Source of the DNA: an uncultured Bacilli bacterium | Lineage (GTDB): Bacteria > Bacillota_I > Bacilli_A > RFN20 > CAG-826 | Direction: 5' to 3' | Assembly (NCBI GenBank): GCA_944368975.1 | Contig: CALVXI010000005.1 | Span: 20,967-84,966, forward strand | DNA: 64,000 nucleotides | Shown here: positions 26,176-64,000 of the stretch, piece after piece | How the letters are laid out: each line of letters begins with the position of its first letter | Position numbering within the stretch: position 1 is the first letter of the stretch | Notes under the pieces: model-generated | The model's database searches: none | What the model saw: the letters and a program-made list of their open reading frames with translations, nothing else | Told to the model about the DNA's origin: nothing | Program-made: the position numbers and the translations under genes

Positions 26176-26180
26176 TAAAA

Positions 26181-26939: not shown

Positions 26940-26953
26940 TAAGGAGAAAGTTT

Positions 26954-27586: not shown

Positions 27587-27590
27587 GATT

Positions 27591-36397: not shown

Positions 36398-36503
36398 ATT
36401 TAAATAATAAGACTTTAACCATACTTTAAGAAAACATCTAAAATTATCTAATAATTGATTATTTGCACAAAAAAATATAAAATTTGTGCAAAGGAGGAAG
36501 CAT

Positions 36504-37621: not shown

Positions 37622-37790
37622 GAAGATTGATAGAGGCGCAATCTTAAATAGTAACTAGTCTAGAAGGCATTCATTGAAGCTAGTGAAAGGTAAGATTGCC
37701 GAAACGACATTTAGGCATAAATGTTAGTTGGGCTATAAGAGAATATCTTATAGACTCCTAGAAAGTTTTCTAGAGGCGCTATCGGTGTAA
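37622..37790 (+). promoter_or_regulatory. Lysine riboswitch (L-box) aptamer
   Basis: GATAGAGGCGC...AGTA...GTGAAAGG...ATTGCCGAA...TTGGG...ACTCCTAGA..TCTAGAGGCGCTATC. These are the conserved L-box blocks in canonical order, closed by a P1 helix GATAG/CTATC. Confidence 0.8.
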
Positions 37791-39540: not shown

Positions 39541-39541
39541 A

Positions 39542-40467: not shown

Positions 40468-41505
40468 ATGAGCGAATCAATAATGCATAAAGAAATATTA
40501 ATGATAAGAGAATCTTTAAAACTTACATATTCTTTTAATAAAGAAAAAATAATTGATTTTTGCAAGGTTTTTAAAGAAAAAAATATTAAAAATGTAATGG
40601 TTGTTGCTAGAGGAAGTAGTGATAATGTCGGTGTATATTTAAAATATTTATTTGAAATATATCTTCATATTCCTGTTAGTTTTGCTAGTAGCAGTGTTGT
40701 AACTAAATATGATTCTTACTTAAATTTTGATAAAACTTTAGTAATTGGAATTAGTCAAAGTGGAAGCGGCGAAGATATTTGTGAATTTATTAAAATGAGT
40801 AAAAAACATGGAGCTTTAACTTTAAGCATTACAAATAATCCTACATCAATAGTAAGTTTAGCAAGTGATTTTGATTTCCAACTTAATTTAACTAAAGAAG
40901 AAGGCTTAGCAGCGACCAAAACTTTTATCTCTCAGCTTGAATTAGCTTTATTATTAACTGCATATTTAGGTGAAAATAATTCTCTATTACGAGAATATGA
41001 AAAGCTTGATGAACTTATTAAAGAAGTTATTGATAATGAAAAAAATATTATTGAGATAGCAAAACAATGTATTAATTTTAATGATTGTTATTTACTTAGT
41101 AGAGGAATAAATTATGTTTCAAGCTTAGAAGGCGCCTTAAAAATTCAAGAAACTACCTATATTAAAGCTAAAGCCTATGCTAGTAGTGATTTTTATCATG
41201 GACCAATGGCAATTGTCGACGATAAACAAAATATATTTTTATTAAGTGCTTTAGGAAAAGTTAATGATGATAATCATGCAATATATAATAAAATTAAAGA
41301 GTTAGGAGCAAATATAATCATTATTAGTAACGACTCTTATTTTGATAATGAAAAAAATATAATTAAAATTCCTAACTGTGAAGAAGTTATTTCACCATTT
41401 TTAATAATTATTTCAATTCAATTATTAGCTTGTAACTTATCAAAATTAAGAGGAATAGATGTTGATCATCCTCGTAATCTAAAAAAAGTTACAGTAACTA
41501 GATAA
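40468..41505 (+). CDS. Double-SIS-domain sugar-phosphate isomerase/deaminase (GlmS C-terminal-like; AgaS/FrlB/NagB-II class)
   Basis: 345 aa with VVARGSSDN and GISQSGSGEDI (SIS phosphosugar-binding motif). A second SIS half has SRGINYVSSLEGALKIQE. Confidence 0.8.
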   Translation: MSESIMHKEILMIRESLKLTYSFNKEKIIDFCKVFKEKNIKNVMVVARGSSDNVGVYLKYLFEIYLHIPVSFASSSVVTKYDSYLNFDKTLVIGISQSGSGEDICEFIKMSKKHGALTLSITNNPTSIVSLASDFDFQLNLTKEEGLAATKTFISQLELALLLTAYLGENNSLLREYEKLDELIKEVIDNEKNIIEIAKQCINFNDCYLLSRGINYVSSLEGALKIQETTYIKAKAYASSDFYHGPMAIVDDKQNIFLLSALGKVNDDNHAIYNKIKELGANIIIISNDSYFDNEKNIIKIPNCEEVISPFLIIISIQLLACNLSKLRGIDVDHPRNLKKVTVTR

Positions 41506-41507
41506 TA

Positions 41508-42329
41508 TTAATTTTTAGATTTTATATAAAGTTGCCTAAATTGCTTTGGAGTTAAATTGGTATGAGCTTTAAATTTTCTAATATAATTATTTGCACTATT
41601 AAACCCACACTCAAGAGCAATTTCTTTGATTGATTTTGAAGATAACTTTAATAATTTCTTAGAATAATTTACTTTTAAATTAGACAAATACTCTTTATAA
41701 GTAACTCCAGTTTTCTTTTTAAAGAATTCACAAAAATAATTTTTTTGATAACCGCAAAATTCACTTAATTCTTTTAAGGTTGGATTTCTTGCAAAGTTTT
41801 TATGAATATATTTTAAAACATCATTATTACTAGAAGGTTCGATATTTCCCTTTAATTCATTTGAACCAATAATAATTAAAAGTAAAGCATTTAATAAATG
41901 AGTTAATATAAGTTCTTTGTTAGTACGACTTCCTAAGAAAATATCTTGAATCATTTCCATAATTGAACGAACTTGTTTCAAACGATGAGATGATAAATTT
42001 AAAACAATTTCATTTTGATAGTCGAGAAAATAAGTTATATTTTCTTCATCAATTAAAGAATTAGTAAAGGCAACATTAAACATTTTTAAAGGTTTAGTTG
42101 CAACTATTTGATGGTAATCAGTTGGATGAAGTAAAAATATTTTATTTGGCGAAATTGGATATTTATTGCCATTAATTACTTCATATCCTTCTCCTTCATA
42201 GCATAATTCGATTTCATAGAATTCATGAAAATGTAAAGGATACTCTTTCTCAATTGAACTTAGGACAAAGAAAATATTATTTCCATGAAGATATTCATTA
42301 CTTAAATAATTAGTTACATTTTCTTTCAT
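41508..42329 (-). CDS. AraC-family transcriptional regulator (cupin N-domain + HTH)
   Basis: N-terminal HFHEFYEIELC cupin-like sensor. C-terminal dual HTH (LKELSEFCGYQKNYFCEFFKKKTG...IALECGFNSANNYIRKFK). Confidence 0.88.
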   Translation of the reverse strand: MKENVTNYLSNEYLHGNNIFFVLSSIEKEYPLHFHEFYEIELCYEGEGYEVINGNKYPISPNKIFLLHPTDYHQIVATKPLKMFNVAFTNSLIDEENITYFLDYQNEIVLNLSSHRLKQVRSIMEMIQDIFLGSRTNKELILTHLLNALLLIIIGSNELKGNIEPSSNNDVLKYIHKNFARNPTLKELSEFCGYQKNYFCEFFKKKTGVTYKEYLSNLKVNYSKKLLKLSSKSIKEIALECGFNSANNYIRKFKAHTNLTPKQFRQLYIKSKN

Positions 42330-42588
42330 ATTGAATATTATAACATCTGTTTAAAAATAGTCAAAAATTAAGAAAAATGTCTGAAATATTGTTTATATAT
42401 CTAAATAATTTAAGAAATATTTAAACTATTTATCAATATAGTTTAACTAAACTTTCTTAATTTTTGATTATTTTAAAAATTAGTTTATAAATTATTTTAA
42501 GAAATAATATTCATATATTAATAATTTAAGATAGTTTATTTTATTTATTAAATAAATAAATCTATTATTAAATAAAGGAAAGATAATT

Positions 42589-43746
42589 ATGAAAAAAAGT
42601 TTAAAAAGTTTATTCTTAGTACTAGCTGCTAGTTTTTCTTTAATTGGAAGTGGATGTGATAAGGAGAATAATATGCCTTTATATGAAGATAATTTAATTG
42701 AAAGTTTAGATGCATTAAATACCCAAGAAATAAAATATTTAGGAAGATATACTAAAACTGAAGTGAATGGAAAAAATGCAGTATATTTTGGATTTACCAA
42801 TACTGGTTTTGAATTATTCGTTGATGTTAAAAGTGAAACCAATTCCTTATCAATGAGTTTATATAGTGAATTATTAGGTGGAGCCGAAACTCAATATTTA
42901 AAAACTTATATCGATGGTAAAGAAGATAAAAAGATTGAATTAGTTGCTGGTGAGCAAGAAATTGAACTTTATAAAAATTTACCAGCAGGAAAACATACAC
43001 TAAAAGTTTTAAAACTAAATGAAGCAAGTGTTTCTAAATTAGGAGTTTATGAATTTTCTTATGAAGGGGAAATTGAATTTTATAGTAGAACCTATAAAGA
43101 GGAACCTAAATTAATCGAATTTTATGGCGATAGTTTAACTTGTGGCTATGGTAATATTGGAACTCCAGACATTAAAACTTTTAGAACTCAAGACGAAGAT
43201 GGTAGCTTAACTTATGCTCAACTTGTTGCTGATCGCTTAGGTTATGAATCAAGTTTAGTTGCTTGGAGTGGAATTGCTTTAAGTGAAATTTTAGCTCCAT
43301 ATGGTGTAGATATGATGGACCATTATAATACTGTTGAAGGCACAATCCCATTTGATATGAGTAAATCAACGCCTGATATTGTAGTATTTAATTTAGGTAG
43401 TAATGATGATGGTGGTTATGAAAATTTAACTAGTGAACAAAGAGAATTAGGAATCCAAGAATTTATACATAACTATGAAATTATCACCACAGAAATAAAA
43501 AATGCTAATCCAAATTGTGTATTTATTTCTTGTTATAATATGTGCTTTAATATTCGAAATGCGTTAGTAGATGCTATTGAAGAAGCAACAGATAATTTAA
43601 ATAAAAAATATGGTGAAAATACTGCTTTTACTTTAAAATTCCAAGGCAATCAAAGTGGAGCAAATGGTCATCCAAATTTAATGGGTCATCAAATGTCAGC
43701 TGATAGACTTTATAAATTTATAGTCGATAATAATTTAAATAAATAA
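42589..43746 (+). CDS. Lipoprotein SGNH/GDSL esterase, carbohydrate-esterase-2-like (N-terminal beta-sandwich + esterase)
   Basis: Lipobox LIGSGCD. Block I FYGDSLTCGYG. Block V GANGHPNLMGH. 385 aa. Confidence 0.75.
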   Translation: MKKSLKSLFLVLAASFSLIGSGCDKENNMPLYEDNLIESLDALNTQEIKYLGRYTKTEVNGKNAVYFGFTNTGFELFVDVKSETNSLSMSLYSELLGGAETQYLKTYIDGKEDKKIELVAGEQEIELYKNLPAGKHTLKVLKLNEASVSKLGVYEFSYEGEIEFYSRTYKEEPKLIEFYGDSLTCGYGNIGTPDIKTFRTQDEDGSLTYAQLVADRLGYESSLVAWSGIALSEILAPYGVDMMDHYNTVEGTIPFDMSKSTPDIVVFNLGSNDDGGYENLTSEQRELGIQEFIHNYEIITTEIKNANPNCVFISCYNMCFNIRNALVDAIEEATDNLNKKYGENTAFTLKFQGNQSGANGHPNLMGHQMSADRLYKFIVDNNLNK

Positions 43747-43759
43747 AAATTAATTTATA

Positions 43760-43789
43760 TTGAATTGTCAAAAATTAAGAAATTATACT
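43760..43789 (+). promoter_or_regulatory. Candidate promoter with embedded repeated operator motif
   Basis: TTGAAT-18-TATACT. The spacer is the motif TGTCAAAAATTAAGAAAT, which recurs at 42360-75, in inverted form at 42453-67, and in degenerate form at 51461-76. Confidence 0.4.
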
Positions 43790-43854
43790 AATTTAATATA
43801 TATTTAAATTTAATTTAAATATAATAAATTTGGTTATATATTTAGGAGATTTAT

Positions 43855-45819
43855 ATGAAAAAATTGCCATTTTTTCTAGTTTTAATGACTACCTTTTTAA
43901 GTAGTGGTTTATTAACAAAAGTTAATAATGATAATACTTTAGTTAATAATCAAGTTGTTCAAAAAAGAGCCATTAACACTAATGTGTTAGAAACATCTTT
44001 TAATGAAACAACTAAACATGATACTAATGTTTTAAGTCCTGTATTTATTAATACTTTCATTGATTCATTAGATAGCTTAATTAATTATAGTAATGATGAA
44101 AGTATTAGACCAAGTAATGTTATTTTAAGAGTAAATAGTGATTTAATGCTAGTAGATGAAAATGGTAAATTACTTATTAATAGTACTTATAGTAATGGGT
44201 TATCATTTAAAGATGCTTATGACATTTTTATTAAAACTAAAATGTTACCTGTAATTTATTTTAATGATGCTAATACAAAAGATGCACTTATTAATTTTCT
44301 TAATAATACAATGTGCCCTATTGATATGGCAGTTTGTTCAAGTAATGCTGAGCTATTAAAAGAAGTAAGAAGTAAAGATAATGGCGAAGCAATTCGAGGA
44401 ATATATGATGTAAGTAATAATAATCAAATTACAAAAGAAGAAATGGTTAAAATCGCTAATACTTCCTATGCTAATACCATTATTTTAAATGATTCCCAAG
44501 CTAGTGAAGAAACTATACGTTACTTAGAAAGTAGATTTAAATCAGTTTGGGTAATTAATAGTGAATATAGTGATTTAGAAATAGCTAGATTAATAACAGA
44601 TGGAGTTTATGGAATTGTTACTTCTAATGTAAGTGAAGCAATAAATGTATTTGAATATTTTAATGACACCGAGAATAAACTTTATAATGTGAATAGACCT
44701 GCTTTTAATATAGCTCATAGAGGTAATCCAATTACTAATTATACAAATTCTTTAGAAGGCTTTATTGAATCTTATGAGAAAGGTGCAACTCATATCGAAT
44801 TAGATATTATGACCACTAAAGATAATAAGTTAGTTATAATGCATGATAGTGAATTATCAATATCAACTAATGGAAAAGGGAATGTTGCAGATTTAACTAG
44901 TGAAGAAATAAAGCAATACAAAATTACAAAAAACGCCAATCAAATGGTTATTGGAGACGGAGTTGAAATTCCATTTTTAGATGATGTTTTTAAAGAATTT
45001 AAAGGTAATGGAAAAATAATTGTTGTTGAAATTAAAGATAGCAATGTTAATACTGTCAATAATTTAAAAACATATTTAGATGAATATGATATGTATGATC
45101 AGGTTGTTTGTATTGCTTTTGATAATGCGCAACTTGTTAGATGCAAAGAAATTATTCCAGAAGTTCCTTGTGCGACATTAAATAATATGAGTGAAAGTAT
45201 GTTTAACGATCCATCTGGATTAGGTGTAATAAGTTTAAATAGAAATAATTATTCAAATGACTTTAATAAAGGTGTTTTTAATGAGAACTTTGATTTTAAT
45301 CTTGCTGAAAGAGGATTTTTAGGTTTTTATTGGACTTATTCAAATATTGCTGAAATATATACAGGAATAAATAATGGAGTACTTGGAATAACTAATGATT
45401 ATTGTACAACTTTTGAGACTTTCCCTACAAAATTATTATCTCCTGAGGATTTAGTTTTATCTTCAATTGATGAACTTGATGAAAAAACCTTTGAATTAAA
45501 TTATCTTCAATATAATGGAGAAGTAAGTGAAAAAACTATTGAGTCAAAAGCTTTTATCACAAGAAATAATAATGATGGTACAGTAAGTGCGATACTTTCT
45601 GGTTATTTCCTTGGGCCAAATGGTTCACCAAGATATCGTGGAACTTATTTTACAGATGAAATTATATTCAAAATAAATTCTAGTAGTAGCGATGATACTA
45701 ATGGTGATAATAATTTAGGTCTTATATTAGGTATTAGTATTCCTGTTGGTGTAATTTTGATTGGTTCTGGAATAGCAATTCCATTAATACTTAAAAAGAA
45801 AAAAGAGAAAAATAATTAA
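43855..45819 (+). CDS. Surface-anchored glycerophosphodiester phosphodiesterase (GDPD) family protein
   Basis: Signal peptide. Catalytic GDPD block FNIAHRGNP...THIELDIMTTKDNKLVIMHD. The N-terminal half looks like a degenerate second GDPD-like barrel (ends GVYGIVTSN). C-terminal TM helix plus KKKKEKNN tail. Confidence 0.8.
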   Translation: MKKLPFFLVLMTTFLSSGLLTKVNNDNTLVNNQVVQKRAINTNVLETSFNETTKHDTNVLSPVFINTFIDSLDSLINYSNDESIRPSNVILRVNSDLMLVDENGKLLINSTYSNGLSFKDAYDIFIKTKMLPVIYFNDANTKDALINFLNNTMCPIDMAVCSSNAELLKEVRSKDNGEAIRGIYDVSNNNQITKEEMVKIANTSYANTIILNDSQASEETIRYLESRFKSVWVINSEYSDLEIARLITDGVYGIVTSNVSEAINVFEYFNDTENKLYNVNRPAFNIAHRGNPITNYTNSLEGFIESYEKGATHIELDIMTTKDNKLVIMHDSELSISTNGKGNVADLTSEEIKQYKITKNANQMVIGDGVEIPFLDDVFKEFKGNGKIIVVEIKDSNVNTVNNLKTYLDEYDMYDQVVCIAFDNAQLVRCKEIIPEVPCATLNNMSESMFNDPSGLGVISLNRNNYSNDFNKGVFNENFDFNLAERGFLGFYWTYSNIAEIYTGINNGVLGITNDYCTTFETFPTKLLSPEDLVLSSIDELDEKTFELNYLQYNGEVSEKTIESKAFITRNNNDGTVSAILSGYFLGPNGSPRYRGTYFTDEIIFKINSSSSDDTNGDNNLGLILGISIPVGVILIGSGIAIPLILKKKKEKNN

Positions 45820-45835
45820 GTTTTGAGGGGTTTTT

Positions 45836-47467
45836 ATGAAAAGAAAGATTATTTATGCATTTAGTTTAATTACATTTTTATCTATTGGTGGTGTGAGTTT
45901 AGTTTCATGCGACCCTGAAATAAATGAAGTTGAAGAAACAAAATATAAAGTTAATTTTACAAATACAAATGATTATGAAATTTATGGAATTAACACTGAA
46001 GGTTATTTAGAAAATGAAATAGTTAATTTTGAAATTAATGTGTTAAATGAAAATTTAATGATAAACGAAGTTAAAACTGATGATTCTATTTTAAATAGTG
46101 AAACTAATAAATATAGTTTTACGATGCCAAATAAAGATGTAACAATTACTGTCTCTTTAAAAAATAAATCAATATTTGATTTAGCTAGTCCAGGTAATAA
46201 TAAGAATTACCCTGATAAACTAGAAGATTTTACTCCTACTGAATTTGAAGAGGATACTTTTAAAGAAGCAAGTAAGGAAGCTTTAGGTGATGGAGTAAAT
46301 CATATTGTCTATACATTTAATTTAAATAATAATCATGAAGTTCATGCTAATATAATTGAAGTAGATTTAACTAAAGCAACATTAACAACTAATTATGCTA
46401 CTAATGGTATTGCTACCCCATATAGTCAATTATTAGACTATGAAGCTAAAACTAATAAAAAAGTAATGGCAATAACAAATGGAGATTTCTTTGCTACTGG
46501 AGTTGGAACAAGCGTTAATGCTTATGCTCTTAATAATAAGATTATTAAAGCCGGTCATAATGATAATGGGATATATGATTATAAAAATCCTCAAAGTGAT
46601 ATTCCTGCTTCGAATCCAATGTTAATAGGAATAAGTGGAGAAACAGCCTTAATTTCAAGTATACTTGATACTGATTCTAAAGAAGAATGTATTAAATCAC
46701 AGTTAAGTTATTCCATAGTTTATGAAGATAATGGTGAAGTTAAAACTTTAGATCATGTCCTTAATACTGGTAATAATTTATCAAGTAATAATGATTATTT
46801 ATTAATAACATCTGATATGAGTATTAATTTAGAAGGGAATCAATATTTATATAAAATTAAGTATTCTGATACTCAAAATGTTATTACTGAAGGTTATATT
46901 GAAGAAATTATTAATTATGGTATAGATTTAAGTTATCAAATTAGTGATACAAATGAATATTTTTATTTACTTAGTAATGAAGAATTAACTTTTAAAGTTA
47001 ATGATAGAGTAGGTTATACATTAAATAGTGACGATGGAACCTTTAAATTTTATAAAGATATTATAGGTGGGCGTCAATCTTTAGTTGAAAATGGTGAGAT
47101 AGCTAAAACTGTATATGAAGAAAATACTAATGGAGCTCAAACTAGTAATATTCCTCGAACAGCAGTTGGAGTAAAAGATGAACATACTGTTTTACTTTGT
47201 TCTATAGAGAGCTTAAGATATGGAAGTAAAGCTACGAGTGATTCTGATCCATATGGTGTTGATTTACCTGAATTAGCGGAGTTTATGCGATATATAGGAT
47301 GCTATGACGCTATGAATTTTGATGGAGGCGGTTCAACACAACTTATTACCAAAAATAATAATGGTGAAGGGGAAGCCAAAGTTAAAGTTAGAAGTAGTGA
47401 CTATGGCACTTATGAATTAAATGATTCACGTAGAGTTTACAATACTGTTATTATTTCCACAAAGTAA
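45836..47467 (+). CDS. Lipoprotein, phosphodiester glycosidase family (NAGPA/DUF2233-like)
   Basis: Lipobox VSLVSCD. ITNGDFF, PRTAVGV and AMNFDGGGSTQL motifs. N-terminal ~75-aa beta domain is shared with the next lipoprotein. Confidence 0.8.
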   Translation: MKRKIIYAFSLITFLSIGGVSLVSCDPEINEVEETKYKVNFTNTNDYEIYGINTEGYLENEIVNFEINVLNENLMINEVKTDDSILNSETNKYSFTMPNKDVTITVSLKNKSIFDLASPGNNKNYPDKLEDFTPTEFEEDTFKEASKEALGDGVNHIVYTFNLNNNHEVHANIIEVDLTKATLTTNYATNGIATPYSQLLDYEAKTNKKVMAITNGDFFATGVGTSVNAYALNNKIIKAGHNDNGIYDYKNPQSDIPASNPMLIGISGETALISSILDTDSKEECIKSQLSYSIVYEDNGEVKTLDHVLNTGNNLSSNNDYLLITSDMSINLEGNQYLYKIKYSDTQNVITEGYIEEIINYGIDLSYQISDTNEYFYLLSNEELTFKVNDRVGYTLNSDDGTFKFYKDIIGGRQSLVENGEIAKTVYEENTNGAQTSNIPRTAVGVKDEHTVLLCSIESLRYGSKATSDSDPYGVDLPELAEFMRYIGCYDAMNFDGGGSTQLITKNNNGEGEAKVKVRSSDYGTYELNDSRRVYNTVIISTK

Positions 47468-47563
47468 ATTAACAAATATTAAGATTTTTTGTTAAATATT
47501 TAATTAATTATCAATAAATATTAACTTTTAACATAATTTAATTATAATAATTATGTAAGCGCT

Positions 47564-47577
47564 TACATTTGGTAAGC
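47564..47577 (+). promoter_or_regulatory. Catabolite-responsive element (cre)
   Basis: TGTAAGCGCTTACA is a perfect palindromic match to TGWAANCGNTNWCA. It lies 28 nt upstream of the ATG at 47606, just downstream of a TATAAT box. Confidence 0.7.
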
Positions 47578-47605
47578 AAATAGAAATTTAAAAAGGAGAA
47601 TAATA

Positions 47606-49492: not shown

Positions 49493-49518
49493 TCAAATAT
49501 AAAAACAATTTATAACTT

Positions 49519-51471: not shown

Positions 51472-51559
51472 GATTTAGTTTTTAATTTTTCTTATATTTA
51501 TTGTTAATTATTAAGATTTATCTTTTAAAAGTTTATTATATTGCAAAGAGGAAAAGTTT

Positions 51560-53080: not shown

Positions 53081-53084
53081 TTTT

Positions 53085-54470: not shown

Positions 54471-54473
54471 AAA

Positions 54474-56156: not shown

Positions 56157-56166
56157 ATTTTAGTTT

Positions 56167-57192
56167 ATGGAAGCTTTAAGAATTGGAAATAAAACTAGAA
56201 AATTAAACCCAAAATCGATGAATTATTTTCATCGTGTTGGAGTAAAAATAAAAAAATACGCTTCGATATTTTGGTTTATTATACCGGGGGCATTTTTAGC
56301 TATATTATTTGGTTATTTACCATTAATATTTATTTTAGCAGCTTTTAAATCTGACTTTGTTTTAGCAATTAATTCACCTTTACAAGAATTGTTTAGAAAT
56401 AATTGGAGTTTTATTCAATTTACCAGAATCTTTGGTGAAGATAGTGAAATGTTTTTACTAGCAATTAGTAATACATTAATTATTAATGCTATTAATTTAG
56501 TTTTGGTTTTCCCTTTCTCAATTCTTTTAGCAATCATGCTTAGTGAAGTTAAATCTACATTTACTTCTAAACTTATTTTAATTATTTTATGTTTACCAAA
56601 CTTTTTAAGTTGGCCTACAGTTATAGGTATATGGAATAACTTATTTAGAGATCAAAATGGTGTTATAAATAACTTATTAATGAATATTGGTTTAATTAAA
56701 GAACCTATTTACTGGTTTGGTGATAATATTGGTGGAATTGGTGGATTTAATTTATTTAAATTTTTTGCAATTGTTATGAATGCTTGGAAAGGTAGCGGTT
56801 GGAATTCAATTATGTTTTACACTGCTATTATGAGTATTGATAAATCATATTACGAAGCAAGTGAAATTGATGGTTGTAATAAAGTTAAACAAATATGGTA
56901 TTTGACTTTACCATCAATTTTACCAATTATAGCTCTGATGTTTATTATGAATATTACTTATATTTTAAGTAGCGGTTTTGAAGAAATTAATTTATTAGCA
57001 AATATTAGTGATCCAAACTTAAAAGAAAGAATGAAAACATTAGATGTTTATTTATATGAAGTTGCTTTAGGAGCGGGTGCTGATATGTCATTTGCGACCG
57101 CTTTAGGTATATTTAATTCTACAGTTAGCTTAATATTTATGATTGGCGGTAATGCTATAAGTAAAAAATTATTACATAGAGGTCTTTGGTAG
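56167..57192 (+). CDS. Sugar ABC transporter permease (LplB-like)
   Basis: Six-TM MalF-type fold. EAA loop YEASEIDGCNKVKQIWYLTLPSILP. Confidence 0.85.
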   Translation: MEALRIGNKTRKLNPKSMNYFHRVGVKIKKYASIFWFIIPGAFLAILFGYLPLIFILAAFKSDFVLAINSPLQELFRNNWSFIQFTRIFGEDSEMFLLAISNTLIINAINLVLVFPFSILLAIMLSEVKSTFTSKLILIILCLPNFLSWPTVIGIWNNLFRDQNGVINNLLMNIGLIKEPIYWFGDNIGGIGGFNLFKFFAIVMNAWKGSGWNSIMFYTAIMSIDKSYYEASEIDGCNKVKQIWYLTLPSILPIIALMFIMNITYILSSGFEEINLLANISDPNLKERMKTLDVYLYEVALGAGADMSFATALGIFNSTVSLIFMIGGNAISKKLLHRGLW

Positions 57193-57193
57193 T

Positions 57194-58102
57194 ATGAATA
57201 ATCCCTTTATAACAGTTAAAAAAAGACATTTAAGAAAATTAATAAAGAAACCTACAAGTGACCGTGTATTAAATGGTATTAATTTAATATTACTTGCTCT
57301 TTTTTGTTTATTAGTAATTATTCCTTTGCTTAATTTATTATCTTTTGCTTTCTCTACTGGTAGTAGAAATAGTGAAGTTACATTTTTACCAAAAGGTTTT
57401 ACTTTTGATATGTTTAACTATGTTATACATGATAGTGCTTTTTGGAGAAGCTTAGGAAATAGTGTTATTATCACTGTCTTTGTTACTATTTTTAGTAATT
57501 TATTTATGGCTATGGCTGCTTATCCATTAAGTAAACCTGATTTCCCATTCAAAAGAACTATTATGGTTTTCTTTATCATTACTATGTTATTTAGTGCTGG
57601 TATTGTTCCTACTGTTTTATTACTTAGAGCTTTAGGAATTTATGGGACTATCTGGTCAGTAATGCTATTATCGATTAACAATGTTTATAATATGCTTTTA
57701 TATAAATCTTTCTTTGAAGGTTTACCAAAAGAAACATTAGAAGCAGCTGAAGTAGATGGTGTAAGTAATTTACAAATGTTTTTAAGAATTGTCTTACCAA
57801 TGTCTTTACCTGTTTTTGCTAGTTGTGCATTCTTTTCGATTGTCGGAACGTGGAATTCATATAGTGGTGCTTTAATGTTTATTGGTACAACAAGTGATAA
57901 AGAAGCTTATTGGCCACTTGCTCTTTATATATATAATTTACTTCAAGTTGATCCTAGTAGTGATCCTACAAGTTTTTTAAATATGAATTTAACAAATGTT
58001 CAATCAGCTTCAATTGTTATTTCAGTTATTCCTATTTTAGTTATTTATCCTTTTGTTATTCGTTATATTAAATCAGGTATTACTTTAGGAAGTGAGAAAT
58101 AG
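57194..58102 (+). CDS. Sugar ABC transporter permease (LplC-like)
   Basis: EAA loop LEAAEVDGVSNLQMFLRIVLPMSLP. 302 aa. Confidence 0.85.
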   Translation: MNNPFITVKKRHLRKLIKKPTSDRVLNGINLILLALFCLLVIIPLLNLLSFAFSTGSRNSEVTFLPKGFTFDMFNYVIHDSAFWRSLGNSVIITVFVTIFSNLFMAMAAYPLSKPDFPFKRTIMVFFIITMLFSAGIVPTVLLLRALGIYGTIWSVMLLSINNVYNMLLYKSFFEGLPKETLEAAEVDGVSNLQMFLRIVLPMSLPVFASCAFFSIVGTWNSYSGALMFIGTTSDKEAYWPLALYIYNLLQVDPSSDPTSFLNMNLTNVQSASIVISVIPILVIYPFVIRYIKSGITLGSEK

Positions 58103-58103
58103 T

Positions 58104-59240
58104 ATGTTTAAAGAAGAGATTATTAAAAAAGCTTATGCTTATACAAAATTAGATGACGATAATATGTTTAATGATGTTATCGTTGAATATCATGATCCAT
58201 TTAATGAAGAAGAATTTAAAATTTATGGAAGTGGTGTTAGTGATAAACATACATTTTATCGATTTACTCAAGAAGAGATTAATAAAGTAACTGGTGTTTC
58301 AAAAGATGTCCCATGGCTAGCTACGCATAGTAGTGGAATCCAAATTCATTTTAAAACTAATTCAAGATTTATTACCATTCGAGTTTTAGAAAACGGAATT
58401 TTCGATATGAAAAATCTTAATTTTATGGCTCAATGTGGTTTTGACTTATATTATAAAGAAGATGGTATTTATAAATATCATAATAGTAGTTTTCCTAATT
58501 ATATAGATAGTAAGAAATTTATATCCAATATTGGTTTATTTAGAGAAGAAAAAGAGCGTGAGATAATTATTAATTTACCTTTATATATTGGAGTAGTTAA
58601 TTTAGAAATTGGAATTGAAAAAGGGAAGTACGTTAAACCAAATTATTTTCAAAATAATGGGAAAATAATATGTTATGGAACTTCCATTTTACAAGGATGT
58701 GGAGCAAGTAGACCAGGATTATGTGTGACAAATTTAATATCAAGATATTTTGATATTGATGTCTTAAATTATGCTTTTAGTGGAGCTGGTTTACTTGAAA
58801 AGGAAGTTGGAGAAATTATTGCAAGTCGAGATGATATCCGTTTATTAATTATTGATGCAGAAGCAAATGCAGGTTGTGATCGATGGATGGTTGATAATTT
58901 TGATAACTTTATTAATGAATTTTATAAAAAATATCCTGATTTACCTGTTATTTTAATGAATAAAACTAAAATGGCAATTGATAGTTATATCCCTAGAAAT
59001 AAATTTATGAAAGAGTTTAATGATAGATTTTTGAAGTCTAGAGTAAGGAAATATCGTAAATTAAATAAAGAAATTTATTTTGCTAATAATTATGTTTTAT
59101 TTGATAATCAATTTCTTGATGCTAGTGAATTTACAGTCGATGGTGTTCACCCAAATGATTTAGGAATGTTAGAAATCTCGAAAAATTATATTAAAGCAAT
59201 TAAAAAGGTTAAAATTTTAAATTTAAAAAAGGAAGGGTGA
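58104..59240 (+). CDS. Cytoplasmic SGNH/GDSL-family hydrolase (esterase)
   Basis: Block I ICYGTSILQG. Block V VDGVHPNDLG. No signal peptide. ATG 58104 is preferred over GTG 58092. Confidence 0.7.
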   Translation: MFKEEIIKKAYAYTKLDDDNMFNDVIVEYHDPFNEEEFKIYGSGVSDKHTFYRFTQEEINKVTGVSKDVPWLATHSSGIQIHFKTNSRFITIRVLENGIFDMKNLNFMAQCGFDLYYKEDGIYKYHNSSFPNYIDSKKFISNIGLFREEKEREIIINLPLYIGVVNLEIGIEKGKYVKPNYFQNNGKIICYGTSILQGCGASRPGLCVTNLISRYFDIDVLNYAFSGAGLLEKEVGEIIASRDDIRLLIIDAEANAGCDRWMVDNFDNFINEFYKKYPDLPVILMNKTKMAIDSYIPRNKFMKEFNDRFLKSRVRKYRKLNKEIYFANNYVLFDNQFLDASEFTVDGVHPNDLGMLEISKNYIKAIKKVKILNLKKEG

Positions 59241-59244
59241 GAAT

Positions 59245-60756
59245 ATGAAAATAGTAGTAATTCCTTTAGATGAAAGACCATGTAATTATAATTATTTACT
59301 TGAATTACCTTTACCAAGTGAAGTTACACTTGTTTTACCTCCAAAAGAAATTTTAAGCAACAAGAAAACTGTTAAAGATTTAGATAAAATAAGTGAATGG
59401 TTAGTAAATGAATCAATTGATGCAGATTACTTAGTATTATCTTTTGATACGCTTTTATATGGAGGAATTATTCCTAGTAGAATTCATCATAAAAATATTG
59501 ATGAGATTATTAGACGTAGTGAAATTCTTAAAGATATAAAAAATAAAAATCCAAATATTAAAATTTTTGCTAATGAATTAATAATGAGATGCCCTGCTTA
59601 TAATTGTGCTGATGAGGAACCTGAATATTTTGATTATTGTGGTTATGATATTTTTAGATATGGTGAATTAATTGATATTAGAAGTCAAAGACAATTAACC
59701 GATGAAGAAAAAATAGAGTTAGAAAAACGTAAAAATAATATAAAAGAGGCCGATTTAGAAGACTTTTTGAATAGAAGAAAAATAAATTTAGATGGTTTAC
59801 TTCATAATTTAGAGCTTGTAAAAGATAATGTAATTGATTTTTTTGTTATTCCACAAGATGATTGTAGTGAATATGGTTTTACTTCAATTGATATTCGTAA
59901 GGTTAAAAAATATGTTAACGATAATGATTTAGAGGAAAATGTCGTTATGTATCCTGGGGCAGATGAAATTGGACTAACTTTAATTAGTAGATGTTTAAAT
60001 GATTACTATAAATATGAACCTAAAATTTATGTATTTTATAGTTCAACTACTGGGCGTAATGCTATTCCAATGTTTGAAGATCGTCCTATAAATGAAACTA
60101 TTAAATATCATATTTATGCGGTTAAAGGTATTAAAGTTAGTAGCATTATTGAAGCAGATATTTGTTTAGGTGTTAATAATGGAAGTGAGTTTTTAGATAA
60201 AGGAAATAAAAGAGTATCGATAGTTTATGGTAAAAATCGTAATATTCACTCATTTATTGATACTTTAAATTATTCATTAAGTTTAAATAAAATTAGTGGT
60301 ATAGCTGATGTTGCTTATTGTAATGAAGCGGATAAAGAATTAATAAATTATTTAAAGAAAAAGAAATTATTATTTAAAATAGATGCTTATGCTGGATGGA
60401 ATACATCAAGTAATACTTTAGGTACAACTTTAGCAAATTTAATTAGTTATTATTACTCTAAAAACGAGTTAAAGAAAAATAAATCTATATTAAATCGTTA
60501 TATCGAAGATTACATTTATATGGGTATTGTTAGGCAAAAGATAATCAATATCATTAATGAAAAATGCGATCCAAATGTAACTAAATTTAATTTAGGAAAT
60601 AAAAAAGAAGAATATGAAGGCATAGCTAAAAAATTGATCTTAGAAGAAACTAAAAATTTTTCTAGTGATTTATTTTCTTATATAAAAGATATTGATGTAA
60701 ATTTTATTTGGAATAGAACTTTTGAAATTGAACTTAAATTAAAGGATAATTTTTAA
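59245..60756 (+). CDS. DUF4127-family protein (function unknown)
   Basis: The N-terminus MKIVVIPLDERPCNYNY matches my recollection of the DUF4127 signature (PLDxRPxN). 503 aa. Confidence 0.6.
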   Translation: MKIVVIPLDERPCNYNYLLELPLPSEVTLVLPPKEILSNKKTVKDLDKISEWLVNESIDADYLVLSFDTLLYGGIIPSRIHHKNIDEIIRRSEILKDIKNKNPNIKIFANELIMRCPAYNCADEEPEYFDYCGYDIFRYGELIDIRSQRQLTDEEKIELEKRKNNIKEADLEDFLNRRKINLDGLLHNLELVKDNVIDFFVIPQDDCSEYGFTSIDIRKVKKYVNDNDLEENVVMYPGADEIGLTLISRCLNDYYKYEPKIYVFYSSTTGRNAIPMFEDRPINETIKYHIYAVKGIKVSSIIEADICLGVNNGSEFLDKGNKRVSIVYGKNRNIHSFIDTLNYSLSLNKISGIADVAYCNEADKELINYLKKKKLLFKIDAYAGWNTSSNTLGTTLANLISYYYSKNELKKNKSILNRYIEDYIYMGIVRQKIINIINEKCDPNVTKFNLGNKKEEYEGIAKKLILEETKNFSSDLFSYIKDIDVNFIWNRTFEIELKLKDNF

Positions 60757-60758
60757 TT

Positions 60759-61613
60759 ATGACTATATTATCTATTGATATAGGTGGTACTAATATTAAA
60801 AGTGGTGTTTTTGTTAATAATGAATTAACAAAAACTTTTAAAACTAAAACCAATGGAAAATTAGGATTAGATTTTATTAAAGATGGAATAGATGAAGTTT
60901 ATAAATATTTTAAAAATGATTATAAAATTGAGATAATTACTATATCAACTGCTGGCGATATCGATTACAAAAATGGAAAATGCGTATATGCTAGTGATAA
61001 TTTAAAAGGTTTTACTGGTTTTAATATTAAGAAATATATTGAAGAAAAATATCTTACTAAATGTTTAGTTAATAATGATGCAGTATGCCATCTTTTAGGA
61101 ATTTTAAATGAAGAAAATATTAATAAAAATATTTTTATGATAACTTTAGGGACGGGAGTTGGAGCGGTTTTATATAAAGATCATGAAATATATTATGGTA
61201 ATAATTTTGATTTAGGAAGATTCGCTCATTATGAATTAGTAAAAAATGGATTAAGATGTGATTGTGGTAAAAAAGGGTGCGCTGAAAAAGAATTATCAAT
61301 ATCTTATTTAGATAAAGCAATTTTTGAAAAATATCATTATGAAATGAGTGTTAAAAATTTATTTAGTTTATATAAAGAAAACGATAAAAGAGCGATAGAA
61401 ATTTTAAATATTTATTTTGCTAAATTAAATAAATATTTAAAATTTATTGAATCATTAGGGGTAGATTTAATTTATATCTCAGGTGGTATTGCTAGTAGTA
61501 AAGATGTATTTATGGATTATATAAAACTTGATAAAGTTAAATATATTAATGAAAATGAATTTTTAGGAATTTATGGAGCAAAAAAATTAATAGAGTTTTA
61601 TGGTCAATATTAA
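60759..61613 (+). CDS. ROK-family sugar kinase
   Basis: ATP-binding SIDIGGTNIKSG. ROK zinc motif CDCGKKGCAE. GTGVGA loop. Confidence 0.88.
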   Translation: MTILSIDIGGTNIKSGVFVNNELTKTFKTKTNGKLGLDFIKDGIDEVYKYFKNDYKIEIITISTAGDIDYKNGKCVYASDNLKGFTGFNIKKYIEEKYLTKCLVNNDAVCHLLGILNEENINKNIFMITLGTGVGAVLYKDHEIYYGNNFDLGRFAHYELVKNGLRCDCGKKGCAEKELSISYLDKAIFEKYHYEMSVKNLFSLYKENDKRAIEILNIYFAKLNKYLKFIESLGVDLIYISGGIASSKDVFMDYIKLDKVKYINENEFLGIYGAKKLIEFYGQY

Positions 61614-63432
61614 TTGGTGTTTAAAAGAATTAGAAAAAGAATTTGAGTTTTGCAGGGTTTTTAATAAATTAAATATTAAATTCGAGGCTTTTTTAAGTGA
61701 AGAAAATAGTATTAATTTTAATCTAAATGAGAATAAAATTATTATTTATTACACTAATGAAGTGAATATTTTTAGACTCATTTTTAGTTTAAGTAATTTT
61801 AATTTTGATAGAGATTATGAATTAAAACTAATAAATAAATTTAAGGATTTAAGTGTATTAATTGATGTTGCAAGAAATAATGTTTTAAGAGTTAAAACTT
61901 TTAAAAAATTAATCTTATATTTAGCTTTACTTGGGTATAGCTCTATTAGGTTATATTTAGAAGATCTTTATGAAATTCCTTCTGAACCTTATTTTGGTTA
62001 TTTTCGAGGTCGATATAATAAAGAAGAAATAAATGAAATTGTAGCCTATGCTAATTCATTTGGAATTAAAGTTATCCCTTGTATTCAAACTTTAGCGCAC
62101 TTAAAAAGATTAAAAAGATGGATAATGTATCGCGATTTATTTGATATAGATGATATTTTACTTACTGATAACCCTAAGACATATAATTTAATTGAAAAGA
62201 TGATTAAAACAGCGAAAGAATATTTTAATACTGATGTAATTAATATTGGAATGGATGAAGCTATTAATTTAGGAAGAGGGAGATATCTTGATAATCATCC
62301 TTATACTAATCGTTTCGAGATATTTAAAAATCATTTAAATAAGGTTTTAGATATAATTAATAAATATAATTTAAAAGCTGAAATTTGGGGAGATATGTTC
62401 TTTAATAATAAAGAATATGCTTATGAAGATACTTCAAATGTTAATACTATTCAAAATATCGATAAAAATTTAAGTTTAATTTATTGGGATTATAATGATA
62501 AACCAATCGAAGAATATCAAAAAATTATTTCGATGCATAAAACTGTTAGTAAGAATATTTTAGTTGCAGGAGGAAGTTGGAAATGGCTTGGATTTTCTCC
62601 TAATAATATGTATGCGATAAATCATAACAAAAAACTTATGGAAGCAAGCATAAAAGAAAATATTAGTAGTTATATTCTTACTTGTTGGGGTGATAATGGG
62701 GGTGAAACTTCTATTTTTATGGTTTTACCAACTTTATTTAAAGTTAGTAATTATAATTTTGAAGTAAATGATGATTTATTATTTAATAAATTAACTGACA
62801 ATATTTCTATCGATGAATTTTTAAGTGTTGATTATCTAAATAAGGTCTCTTTTGATTATTCTGATTATACGTTAAATTCTTTAAATAGAATCTATTTATA
62901 TAATGATATTTTATTAGGAACTTATGATAGCTTAATTAATGATATCCAAGATAAAGTTTATCTTGATGTATATAAAAAATTAAAGAAATATTCCGATAAT
63001 TCAAAATTTGGTTATTTATTTGATTCTTTAAGTAAATTAAGTAGAGTATTAAGTTTAAAAACTAATATTGCTAAAAGAATAAGAAGAGCCTATAAGGAAA
63101 ATGATTTAACCGAATTAAAAAAACTAGTTAATGACTTAAAAAGATTAAAAAGATATTTATCAACATTTTATAAAAGTTTTTATAAAATGTGGCATTATGA
63201 GAGCAAAGATTTTGGATTTGATGTTTGTGATCTTAGAATTGGAGGAGTTGAAAAAAGAGTTGAAGTTGCAATTAATAAGTTAAATAAATATTTATTAGAC
63301 AAAAATAATATTATTGATGAATTAAGCGAAGATAATTTAGATTTTTATGGGAATAATAAGGATTTCTATAAACCAAACGATATTGTTGATCCGTATTATT
63401 CAAAAATGTCGACAGTAAATGTAAATGATTAG
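61600..63432 (+). CDS. Glycoside hydrolase family 20 (beta-N-acetylhexosaminidase-like), cytoplasmic
   Basis: DVARN, LYLED, IQTLAHL and the catalytic-pair context INIGMDEA (GH20 D-E). No signal peptide. Overlaps the ROK gene by 14 nt. Confidence 0.7.
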   Translation: MVNINWCLKELEKEFEFCRVFNKLNIKFEAFLSEENSINFNLNENKIIIYYTNEVNIFRLIFSLSNFNFDRDYELKLINKFKDLSVLIDVARNNVLRVKTFKKLILYLALLGYSSIRLYLEDLYEIPSEPYFGYFRGRYNKEEINEIVAYANSFGIKVIPCIQTLAHLKRLKRWIMYRDLFDIDDILLTDNPKTYNLIEKMIKTAKEYFNTDVINIGMDEAINLGRGRYLDNHPYTNRFEIFKNHLNKVLDIINKYNLKAEIWGDMFFNNKEYAYEDTSNVNTIQNIDKNLSLIYWDYNDKPIEEYQKIISMHKTVSKNILVAGGSWKWLGFSPNNMYAINHNKKLMEASIKENISSYILTCWGDNGGETSIFMVLPTLFKVSNYNFEVNDDLLFNKLTDNISIDEFLSVDYLNKVSFDYSDYTLNSLNRIYLYNDILLGTYDSLINDIQDKVYLDVYKKLKKYSDNSKFGYLFDSLSKLSRVLSLKTNIAKRIRRAYKENDLTELKKLVNDLKRLKRYLSTFYKSFYKMWHYESKDFGFDVCDLRIGGVEKRVEVAINKLNKYLLDKNNIIDELSEDNLDFYGNNKDFYKPNDIVDPYYSKMSTVNVND

Positions 63433-63440
63433 GAGAGATT

Positions 63441-64000
63441 ATGGAATATTTAGTTAAGAAAAATATTGTTACAATTAAAAATAGTGAAGAAAAGTTTTTA
63501 AACTTTGAATTTTTATTAAATGATACTATTCGTATTTATACTAAGAAAAATAAGACTGATTTAATTGAATTAAATCTTTTTAAAACTAGAAAGAAATTCG
63601 AAATCAAAGAAGACAATGGAAATATTGTTATAAACTACTTAAATTATACTTTTAAAATTAATGATAAATTAGGTTTTAATTTATATATTAATAATAAGTT
63701 TATTACAACATATTCATTTAATATATATTTTGATGATTATGAAAAGAAAAACTATTTTAATACAACTTTAAATATTAATAATAAAACTGACTATATTTTT
63801 GGACTTGGAGATAAGATGTCTTATCTTGATAAAAAAGGATATTTTTATGCTAGTTATAATACCGATGATCCATCTCACCAAGATGAATTATTTCCTAGTT
63901 TATATAAAAGTTTAAATTATCTTTTACTTAATATAAGCGATAATTTTTTGGGACTATATTTTCCATCAACTTATCGTTATACATATGATTTAGGTAAAAC
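63441..64000 (+). CDS. Glycoside hydrolase family 31 (alpha-glucosidase/xylosidase-like), N-terminal part; continues beyond window
   Basis: AGGAGAG RBS. FGLGDKMSYLDKKGYFYASYNTDDPSHQDELFPSLYKSLNY matches the GH31 N-domain pattern (GLGE..g.L.k.G....WN.D...). Confidence 0.65.
   Translation, partial: MEYLVKKNIVTIKNSEEKFLNFEFLLNDTIRIYTKKNKTDLIELNLFKTRKKFEIKEDNGNIVINYLNYTFKINDKLGFNLYINNKFITTYSFNIYFDDYEKKNYFNTTLNINNKTDYIFGLGDKMSYLDKKGYFYASYNTDDPSHQDELFPSLYKSLNYLLLNISDNFLGLYFPSTYRYTYDLGK

Follow-up and report, generated by a model that had tools for sequence, protein, structure and literature searches.

Which polymer would a bacterium take apart with surface enzymes that attack esters and phosphodiesters, while all of its recognizable glycosidases are kept inside the cell? 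This question is raised by a large gene locus at positions 40468–64000 of a 64,000-nucleotide stretch of DNA (the window) from an uncultured Bacilli bacterium (contig CALVXI010000005.1). We give a probability of about 0.5 to the reading that the locus would serve the carbon-regulated catabolism of an O-acylated, phosphodiester-bridged, N-acetylhexosamine (HexNAc)/N-acetylmannosamine (ManNAc)-containing bacterial envelope glycopolymer, and less than this to teichoic acid specifically as its substrate. The most likely sources of such a polymer would be wall and lipoteichoic acids (WTA and LTA), sugar-phosphate secondary wall polymers, and capsules shed by neighboring Gram-positive bacteria. An earlier reading of the sequence (the original prediction) had proposed that the locus scavenges teichoic acids or related phosphoglycans; its domains, the localization of their products and synteny speak for it, but its substrate is purely an inference, and teichoic acid, a capsule, or another phosphoglycan would each be possible.

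Proteins from the open reading frames (ORFs) of the window were scored against Pfam at curated cut-offs, and NCBIfam equivalog cut-offs were applied for exact activities. All domain assignments of the original prediction passed this hidden Markov model (HMM) search, and the lipoboxes, C-terminal membrane anchors, catabolite-responsive element (cre) and shared 15-mer that it had listed were each found again. The locus has 17 tightly packed genes in the window, which lie on the plus strand throughout, apart from that of an AraC-family regulator on the minus strand (Table 1), and at least three or four gaps of promoter size. A public metagenomic contig of 122 kb (L001) carries the same sequence and extends past the window end. 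There, GH31 (GH, glycoside hydrolase family), a GFO/IDH/MocA oxidoreductase of 430 amino acids (aa), NanE, a MalK-type ATPase (five genes after GH20), and GH36 are encoded downstream of GH20, and the full locus, taken from the window and L001 together, spans about 30 kb with 21 or more genes.

A lipobox cysteine was read from the sequence in six proteins, namely the CE2 esterase, the NAGPA protein, three lipoproteins of the locus (LP1, LP2, and LP3), and the solute-binding protein (SBP). Each of the two GDPD proteins begins with a signal-like segment and ends in a hydrophobic helix plus a lysine-rich tail, and export signals were not present on the remaining, cytoplasmic enzymes, in agreement with the division into extracellular and cytoplasmic products made earlier. 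The recognizable extracellular bond-breaking enzymes were one esterase, two GDPD phosphodiesterases, one phosphodiester glycosidase, and nothing else; not one secreted protein of the locus belonged to a known glycoside hydrolase family, and the known-family glycosidases were all cytoplasmic. Because the recognizable extracellular bond-breaking kit consists only of CE2, GDPD, and NAGPA proteins, repeat units that are bridged by phosphodiesters and bear esters are the simplest reading of the substrate.

The esterase matched CE2_N (41.2 bits) and Lipase_GDSL (36.6 bits) and has GDSL and GHP blocks in its sequence, which places it with CE2, and did not reach the AxeC2 equivalog of NCBIfam (54 versus a cut-off of 500). 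Both GDPDs scored above the Pfam cut-off for PF03009 (23.6 bits), and they were 25% identical to each other over their full length (BLASTP, 1.5e-22). The catalytic HRG, E, ExD, and H motifs were intact in both, as aligned to 2pz0 and 7e0v for GDPD2 and as read by eye for GDPD1. GDPD1 is composed of its N-terminal signal-like segment, a domain of ~235 aa of no detected family, the GDPD barrel, and the C-terminal membrane anchor, and its relatives in the PDB include GlpQ (5t91) and the large GP-PDE domain proteins 9eul/9euf. GDPD2 gave a weak match to the AvrBs2 model of NCBIfam, and the NCBIfam equivalogs GlpQ (51 versus 264) and UgpQ (25 versus 254) were not reached. The N-terminal ~235-aa domains of the two proteins (encoded at 43855–44700 and 49519–50280) end in GxYGIxT, a motif reminiscent of the last strand of a GDPD barrel. 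That this part could be a degenerate second barrel of the GDPD type was not supported by hhalign (probability of 0.6%).

The NAGPA protein was related to the bacterial structure 3ohg (3.9e-11), and its similarity to vertebrate NAGPA was marginal (E = 0.01–0.1). Its DGGGS loop (NFDGGGSTQ) was kept in 120 of the 120 homologues listed; the loop does not vary between bacteria and man, and human NAGPA requires the Asp in it (PMC13474241). Additionally, the protein has ~380 extra N-terminal residues, the first ~110 of which are common to LP1 (BLASTP, 4.8e-17). In the literature searched, no known natural substrate was found for bacterial NAGPA proteins. By analogy, we infer that the alpha-GlcNAc-1-phosphate-6-MurNAc anchor of bacterial envelope polymers such as WTA (GlcNAc, N-acetylglucosamine; MurNAc, N-acetylmuramic acid) would chemically resemble the GlcNAc-1-phosphate-6-Man that is cut by NAGPA.

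Several of these proteins have characterized counterparts. GlpQ degrades WTA, and Staphylococcus aureus scavenges the WTA of other staphylococci with it (PMC9208761; PMC7086022), and the membrane-anchored GDPD WhyD releases complex WTA (PMC9208761). GlpQ and PhoD of Bacillus subtilis and S. aureus, and WhyD of Streptococcus pneumoniae, have in common with the locus that they are extracellular or membrane-anchored GDPD-fold enzymes with identical catalytic motifs. They are, however, single enzymes, under Pho control or with housekeeping roles, that release glycerol-3-phosphate or whole WTA chains, whereas the two GDPDs of the locus are ~650 aa long, have extra N- and C-terminal domains, and are encoded together with 19 or more other genes for sugar catabolism, among them those of an importer, esterases, NAGPA, and glycosidases, with control by AraC and cre. 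Mammalian NAGPA and the bacterial DUF2233 protein 3ohg share PF09992 and the DGGGS loop with its catalytic Asp with the protein of the locus, which differs in being a lipoprotein, in its N-terminal extension, and in the marginal similarity of its sequence to vertebrate NAGPA. Finally, XanP of Xanthomonas hydrolyzes the galactose-1-phosphate diester made by AvrBs2, a GDPD-derived synthetase (PMC12807533). The XanT–XanP pair resembles the locus in using a phosphodiesterase for feeding on a sugar-1-phosphate diester, but consists of two genes in a Gram-negative plant pathogen, and its substrate is a cyclic dimer rather than a polymer.

Fragments released at the surface would be imported by a CUT1-type transporter, which proved to be complete, with a family-1 SBP, two MalF/MalG-type permeases, and the MalK-type ATPase, the last of these being encoded in L001. 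The original statement that the locus has no ATPase gene is thus true inside the window only, where the sequence ends before the ABC_tran/OB_MalK gene, and related loci also carry an ATPase. This ATPase is ~250 aa longer than usual, with ABC_tran split in two stretches, and has a 604-aa counterpart in a related locus (L006).

Inside the cell, the double-SIS protein scored under the NCBIfam equivalog cut-offs for GlmS (229 versus 381 bits) and NagB-II (198.6 versus 430), and its gene was kept at the equivalent position in three relatives (L006, L007, and L014). The GxDLY esterase matched the uncharacterized structure 4lhs (1.9e-42). The AlphaFold model of the DUF4127 protein was of high confidence (pLDDT 95.7), and a close solved relative was not found by Foldseek, the best template modeling (TM) scores being 0.22–0.28 to TIM-barrel enzymes, xylose isomerase, GH1, and GH20C among them. 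Because the family has 47 invariant positions that include 10 Asp and 4 Glu (the invariant acidic residues including D9, D205/D206, E278/D279, D305, and D355), we regard DUF4127 as a predicted enzyme, of an activity not assignable from the fold search; no papers on it were found in the literature searched. The NCBIfam matches of the ROK protein, to glucokinase and ManNAc kinase, were under the cut-off, and a ManNAc or GlcNAc kinase is plausible. NanE passed (270 bits versus a cut-off of 189), and GH31 was nearest to alpha-glucosidases in the PDB rather than to alpha-N-acetylgalactosaminidases. For the GFO/IDH/MocA protein, a GH109-like NAD-dependent alpha-HexNAc-ase was considered, and the PDB sequence search returned generic dehydrogenases only.

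The three lipoproteins LP1, LP2, and LP3, which the original prediction had treated as orphans, appeared not to be incidental to the locus, and instead to form one rare family that is part of its conserved core. None of the three had a match in Pfam or NCBIfam, and BLASTP among them gave no matches. Profile comparison by hhalign gave probabilities of 50% for LP1–LP2 and 69% for LP2–LP3, and for LP1–LP3 the signal peptide alone aligned. On the basis of these profiles, we consider LP1–LP3 with moderate confidence to be putative distant relatives, and LP3 adjoined LP2 in every relative. The AlphaFold model of LP2 (pLDDT 87.9, pTM 0.86) was matched by Foldseek to B. subtilis YncM, neprosin, HC7 (8pn3), a PL14 lyase, and legume lectins, at target-normalized TM scores of 0.29–0.53 and identities of 12% or less, such that the ConA-like matches are generic. 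Against the glutamic peptidase neprosin the Foldseek probability was 1.0, but the TM score only 0.39–0.53, with 10–12% identity. Searches against viral structures, in which phage receptor-binding proteins were sought, returned generic jelly-roll matches only. The modeled fold would fit a lectin-like capture protein or an enzyme, either one.

LP2 has few relatives, with 33 clusters found in a word-indexed search and, among 1.84 billion representatives searched exhaustively by HMM, 63 at E ≤ 1e-10. Part of these 63 matches cover the C-terminal helical module alone, and surface proteins of 800–2800 aa contain many of the matches to the core. The C-terminal module (52850–53080, residues ~430–506, ~60 aa) also occurred as 3–20 tandem stretches in many large proteins of up to 3500 aa, and represents an unnamed surface-protein repeat that Pfam did not report. 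Additionally, the G+C content of the LP1, LP2, LP3, and SBP genes (47606–56156) was 31–35%, as compared with 22–28% in their neighbors, which could reflect an amino-acid composition rich in Thr, Gly, and Ala or a different origin.

The genes appeared to be under carbon control. A perfect palindrome of the CcpA type, TGTAAGCGCTTACA, precedes LP1 and is the sole such site in the 64 kb. It lies just downstream of the −10-like hexamer of a promoter-like TTAACT-16-TATAAT at 47521–47548, and the identical site is located upstream of LP1 in six relatives as well (L006, L007, L012, L013, L014, and L017), a conservation that amounts to a phylogenetic footprint. The 15-mer TCAAAAATTAAGAAA has three exact copies in the window, all of them intergenic and within the locus, and versions with one or two mismatches occur between the corresponding genes in L006, L007, and L014. 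At two mismatches it was not enriched window-wide (8 found versus 4.7 expected from shuffles), and we propose it with moderate confidence as a shared operator-like motif. Promoter and terminator scans were uninformative in DNA of 25% G+C, with promoter-like sites being fewer than in shuffles. Together, AraC, cre, and the 15-mer point to a putative substrate induction with carbon catabolite repression, not to Pho-type control. The suggestion in the original prediction that phosphate is harvested alongside carbon gained no regulatory support, since AraC and cre represent carbon control (Pho boxes were not searched for).

Conservation of the locus in other genomes provided a second line of evidence. 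The original prediction had proposed synteny as a check, and in related loci recovered starting from NAGPA and from LP2, gene order was kept in 10 distinct loci at 40–90% protein identity. The shared order was (SIS)–CE2–GDPD1–NAGPA–LP1–(GDPD2)–LP2–LP3–SBP–permease–permease–GxDLY–DUF4127–(ROK–GH20 or GH31). Such repetition of one gene order across 10 distinct loci makes the locus more than a chance association. GDPD2 was not present in L007 and L014. Some relatives supply functions missing from the locus itself: L007 and L014 have a PIG-L deacetylase, and L006 has a Metallophos phosphatase, an ATPase, and NagA as upstream extras. In L012 an ATPase is directly 5′ of LP1. The front end proved to be modular, as seen in L017, from a related Mollicutes genome bin, in which it (318–4885) consists of Big_2, two DUF4185 proteins (one with a lipobox), SIS, a PfkB kinase, and an ATPase, which replace CE2, GDPD, and NAGPA, and is followed by the same cassette of LP1–LP3, transporter, GxDLY, and DUF4127. 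The DUF4185 family includes endo-D-arabinanases of mycobacterial wall polymers, and the swap suggests that loci of this kind target a range of bacterial wall polymers.

GxDLY adjoined DUF4127 in all 11 loci that reached far enough downstream, and in five of six distant contexts. These contexts came from an independent start with six DUF4127 homologues at 40–46% identity, the neighborhoods of which were considered within 10 kb. In all six, NAGPA and the GxDLY esterase were encoded within that distance of DUF4127, and the order NAGPA–GxDLY–DUF4127 was found in four. Long-subfamily GDPDs were present in three (L019, L024, and L026), a ManNAc route in four (NanE in L019, L023, and L026, and GlcNAc 2-epimerase in L024), and CE2 esterases, ROK, GFO, GH31, GH20C, and RpiR-type regulators also recurred. 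Profile searches exposed LP2- or LP3-family domains inside large proteins of L019, L021, and L023. Phosphatases of three folds (Metallophos, Exo_endo_phos, and Y_phosphatase3) were found in related loci. One locus recovered with a NAGPA homologue of 36% identity (L009) has GxDLY, DUF4127, ROK, GH20C, GH31, an acetyltransferase, and GH36 directly after NAGPA, and no GDPD, LP, or transporter genes nearby. Another, with a homologue of 35% identity (L010), breaks the pattern, in that the neighbors of NAGPA are two permeases and a binding protein of 1068 aa, and neither GxDLY nor DUF4127 is encoded within 10 kb. As side observations, an acetyltransferase-like gene (NAT_N/GNAT_C) followed GH20C or GH31 in L009, L021, and L025, and RpiR regulators (HTH_6 plus SIS) were in place of AraC in L019, L021, L023, and L025.

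The pattern of ManNAc-related genes bears on the nature of the polymer. NanA and sialidase were found neither in the window, nor in L001, nor in any related locus examined. Since NanE occurs without either of them, ManNAc is probably released directly, and because ManNAc epimerases recur without a sialic acid lyase, a bacterial polymer is suggested. Bacterial polymers with ManNAc include WTA, through their ManNAc-GlcNAc-1-phosphate linkage unit, secondary wall polymers, and capsules. A sialic acid (nan) cluster was also considered, with NanE, ROK, GFO, AraC, and the esterase recalling the nan operon of Ruminococcus gnavus, and was rejected, as NanA and sialidase occur in no locus.

The organisms that carry homologues were named Candidatus Onthovivens, "uncultured Mollicutes bacterium", "Bacilli bacterium", and "Erysipelotrichaceae", and came from chicken, human (including Hadza), rumen, sheep colon, and horse metagenomes, in addition to the Mollicutes bin SUG431. 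GTDB places Onthovivens in the order RFN20, and the host of the locus is an Onthovivens-like, "uncultured Mollicutes"-type, probably wall-less member of the gut Bacilli. Uncultured orders of the RFN20 type are predicted to be without standard WTA/LTA synthesis and without sortases, and two families of such lineages to be without peptidoglycan (PMC10868615). Among human populations, the non-industrial ones are enriched in these organisms. Tethering by lipoprotein anchors and C-terminal helices fits the predicted lack of sortases and of a standard wall in the lineage, and for a lineage without standard WTA/LTA synthesis a foreign polymer is favored over one of its own.

These observations can be assembled into a proposed route. 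At the cell surface, the CE2 lipoprotein would strip ester substituents, the two membrane-anchored GDPDs would cut polyol-phosphate or sugar-phosphate diesters, and the NAGPA-like lipoprotein would cleave the C1–O bond of alpha-HexNAc-1-phosphate linkages, with the three ConA-like lipoproteins holding the polymer or performing a cleavage of a kind yet to be recognized. Fragments of the size of a repeat unit would then be imported by the SBP, the two permeases, and the downstream-encoded ATPase. In the cytoplasm, the GxDLY esterase, DUF4127, GH20C, GH31, and GH36 would dismantle them to alpha-glucose or alpha-galactose (GH31 and GH36), beta-HexNAc (GH20C), and ManNAc or GlcNAc. On the amino sugars, the ROK kinase would act first, followed by NanE, then by a deacetylase, which is NagA or PIG-L in relatives and was not seen in the window, and finally by the SIS protein of the NagB-II-like kind, which would pass them on to glycolysis. 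AraC would induce the locus, and CcpA would repress it through cre.

Of the rival explanations, the foraging of host glycans survived best, and we consider it unlikely. The locus would in that case act on mucin or host glycoconjugates, NAGPA uncovering GlcNAc-P-Man on N-glycans and the esterases removing O-acetyl groups. The gut habitat agrees with this, the sole characterized NAGPA acts on a host N-glycan, and loci for host glycans often encode GH20C, GH36, ROK, NanE, and esterases. However, fucosidase and beta-galactosidase were, like sialidase and NanA, in neither the window, L001, nor the related loci, the secreted proteins included no known-family glycoside hydrolase, GlcNAc-P-Man is scarce, and the GH31 protein is closer to alpha-glucosidases than to alpha-N-acetylgalactosaminidases. 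The resemblance of the LP2 model to the glycopeptide-binding HC7 (8pn3), among others, is also part of a set of generic ConA-like matches with TM scores of at most 0.53.

Dietary or fungal phosphoglycans, such as yeast phosphomannan, plant or fungal glycosyl-inositol-phosphoceramides, or similar molecules, make quite an improbable substrate. The animals sampled eat plants or a mixed diet, alpha-glucosides and alpha-galactosides would be fitting substrates for GH31 and GH36, and GDPD belongs to the PLC-like phosphodiesterase fold, which is established to handle inositol phosphodiesters as well. Against these points, no mannosidase is present, and NanE or GlcNAc 2-epimerase recurs in the related loci, while to our knowledge ManNAc is not a sugar of plant or yeast walls. 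Remodeling or recycling of the cell's own surface lipoglycan, capsule, or teichoic-acid-like polymer received a similarly low probability from us. WhyD, itself a membrane-anchored GDPD, trims the WTA of its own cell, and the surface enzymes of the locus are all tethered. Nutrient use is nevertheless indicated by AraC and the conserved cre, the ABC importer, and the full catabolic route; biosynthetic glycosyltransferases were not seen among the annotated window genes from 14120 on or in L001, and the lineage is predicted to be without standard WTA/LTA synthesis.

Phosphate scavenging of the GlpQ/PhoD type, induced by phosphate starvation, as the main role of the locus is very unlikely. In Bacillus and Staphylococcus, teichoicases of the GlpQ type help the cell to acquire phosphate, and a pstSCAB-phoU operon with a two-component system is located ~11 kb upstream. 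Unrelated genes lie between this operon and the locus, however, most genes of the locus metabolize sugars, and the regulation observed, AraC plus cre, is that of carbon (with the same reservation as to Pho boxes). Lastly, that several small operons with no single substrate became neighbors by chance is highly improbable, since the gaps of promoter size and the modular front end across relatives, which would suit it, are outweighed by the same neighbors at 40–90% identity in the 10 related loci and the NAGPA–GxDLY–DUF4127 trio in far more distant genomes.

Returning to the catabolism of a phosphodiester-bridged envelope glycopolymer, the locus is like a polysaccharide utilization locus (PUL) in the Gram-positive sense, with an ABC importer, a regulator, and enzymes. 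AraC, the family-1 SBP, two permeases, an esterase, GFO/IDH/MocA, NanE, and a ROK-type kinase are shared with the R. gnavus nan cluster and Gram-positive PULs. The locus differs from these in having neither sialidase nor NanA, in its predicted extracellular phosphodiester cleavage, in its lack of known secreted glycoside hydrolases, and in its conserved core with DUF4127 and LP1–LP3. The PULs of Bacteroidota follow the same logic of surface capture, limited cleavage outside, import of oligomers, and internal exo-glycosidases, and the lipoproteins of the locus may act like their surface glycan-binding proteins; in contrast to them, the locus has no SusC/SusD domains by Pfam, no outer membrane, and an ABC transporter. 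A dedicated multi-gene system for teichoic acid utilization was not described in the literature searched. The families are thus individually known, and what differs is their combination: we did not find the composition, a phosphodiester-cleaving extracellular kit with a conserved core of NAGPA, DUF4127, GxDLY, and LP proteins, described in that literature.

Several points weigh against this reading. All activities and the substrate are predictions from sequence, in which the specificity of the GDPD and NAGPA proteins is not readable, and the most conserved parts, LP1–LP3 and DUF4127, are of unassigned activity. Neither a phosphomonoesterase nor NagA was recognizable in the locus. GDPD is not universal, with none in L009, L021, L023, and L025. 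Because GDPD is missing in several loci, and because the front end is swapped in L017, the conserved back end (LP2, LP3, transporter, GxDLY, and DUF4127) is not tied to phosphodiester cleavage as such, and may handle a part common to several polymers. Finally, the placement of the host among wall-less Bacilli depends on the names of homologues and on the GTDB placement of Onthovivens.

A wider proposal, which we advance tentatively and consider rather doubtful, is that NAGPA, GxDLY, DUF4127, and LP2/LP3 represent a widespread uncharacterized pathway, by which gut Bacilli of a reduced and possibly wall-less type, as well as other bacteria of the gut, would live on the wall glycopolymers of their neighbors, including the ManNAc-GlcNAc-1-phosphate linkage unit through which teichoic acids are attached to peptidoglycan. 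NAGPA would detach or uncap HexNAc-1-phosphate, DUF4127 would be a new glycoside hydrolase family (e.g., a beta-N-acetylmannosaminidase), and the LP family would be a new surface binding or endo-acting class.

The genes 5′ of 40468 are unrelated to the locus and include an amino-acid ABC transporter, a Fic protein, defense genes, the pst-phoU operon, and a ribosomal protein operon. Directly after the latter is probably a defense island (14120–22758), with four large ORFs (776, 438, 561, and 470 aa) without a Pfam match; the ORF at 17846–19531 matched the PADLOC candidate-defense model PDC-M26A (2.5e-38), and an AbiLi/AbiLii pair is at 20948–22758. The region at 22858–29898 encodes a PstS-like binding protein, PstC, PstA, PstB, PhoU, a response regulator, and a histidine kinase, and that at 32693–34183 an AbiEi antitoxin-like gene and then an AbiEii that matches the C-terminal part of its profile only and looks truncated. 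A Fic-domain gene (36486–37559) is followed by a lysine riboswitch (37623–37789; 107.7 bits) upstream of the amino-acid ABC transporter operon (37849–40384), which ends just before the locus. The G+C content of the DNA was 22–35%. Genetic code 4 was ruled out, as TGA is the stop of 2 of 50 ORFs and every Trp codon is TGG; the genes are read with code 11.

Table 1. Genes and sequence elements of the locus, in window positions unless L001 is given
Feature	Position	Strand	Basis and remarks
Double-SIS sugar-phosphate isomerase/deaminase (putative), cytoplasmic	40468..41505	+	Pfam SIS, two stretches; nearest GlmS C-terminal half and NagB-II
AraC-family regulator, divergent from CE2 gene	41508..42329	-	Pfam AraC_binding and HTH_AraC/HTH_18; 79% identical orthologue in L006
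Operator-like 15-mer TCAAAAATTAAGAAA, copy 1	42361..42375	+	AraC–CE2 intergenic
Operator-like 15-mer TCAAAAATTAAGAAA, copy 2	42453..42467	-	AraC–CE2 intergenic; inverted relative to copy 1, starts 92 bp apart
CE2-like SGNH esterase lipoprotein, putative extracellular deacylase	42589..43746	+	Pfam CE2_N and Lipase_GDSL; lipobox LIGSGC, GDS block
Operator-like 15-mer TCAAAAATTAAGAAA, copy 3	43768..43782	+	CE2–GDPD1 intergenic
GDPD1, predicted surface phosphodiesterase	43855..45819	+	Pfam GDPD 98.2 bits; HRG / ExD / HD motifs
NAGPA/DUF2233-type phosphodiester glycosidase lipoprotein	45836..47467	+	Pfam NAGPA (PF09992) 79.4 bits versus 25
cre (CcpA-type), perfect palindrome TGTAAGCGCTTACA	47554..47567		39 bp before LP1 start
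LP1 lipoprotein	47606..49492	+	Lipobox; N-terminal ~110 aa common to NAGPA protein; C-terminal part weakly LP2-related
GDPD2, second membrane-anchored GDPD	49519..51471	+	Pfam GDPD 73.5 bits
LP2 lipoprotein, rare family	51560..53080	+	AlphaFold (AF2) ConA-like beta-sandwich and C-terminal helical module
LP3 lipoprotein, putative distant LP2 paralogue	53085..54470	+	hhalign; shared motif LSEaKiRPS
Family-1 solute-binding lipoprotein, large (560 aa)	54474..56156	+	Pfam SBP_bac_1, SBP_bac_8; lipobox LFSC
ABC permease 1	56167..57192	+	Pfam BPD_transp_1; weak best NCBIfam match UgpA
ABC permease 2	57194..58102	+	Pfam BPD_transp_1
GxDLY-type SGNH esterase, cytoplasmic	58104..59240	+	Pfam GxDLY and Lipase_GDSL_3
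DUF4127, cytoplasmic, TIM-barrel-like	59245..60756	+	Pfam 479.8 bits, E = 1e-143
ROK sugar kinase	60759..61613	+	Pfam ROK; CxCGxxGC zinc motif
GH20C-type beta-hexosaminidase, cytoplasmic	61600..63432	+	Pfam Glyco_hydro_20 36.6 bits and Glyco_H_20C_C 144.9 bits; GMDE catalytic pair
GH31, alpha-glucosidase-like, cut by window end	63441..64000	+	735 aa in L001
MalK-type ATPase, 627 aa	L001 18494-20377, outside window		ABC_tran and OB_MalK

The gut contains a great deal of carbon, nitrogen, and phosphorus in the form of teichoic acids and related phosphodiester-linked wall polymers. If the proposed catabolism of an envelope glycopolymer is true, the locus could yield enzymes with which teichoic acids are dissected or removed from pathogens, would provide the first natural substrate for bacterial NAGPA/DUF2233 proteins, and would assign roles to DUF4127 and to a new lipoprotein family. 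Moreover, it would reveal how gut Bacilli with small genomes, and probably without a wall, subsist on envelope debris from other bacteria.

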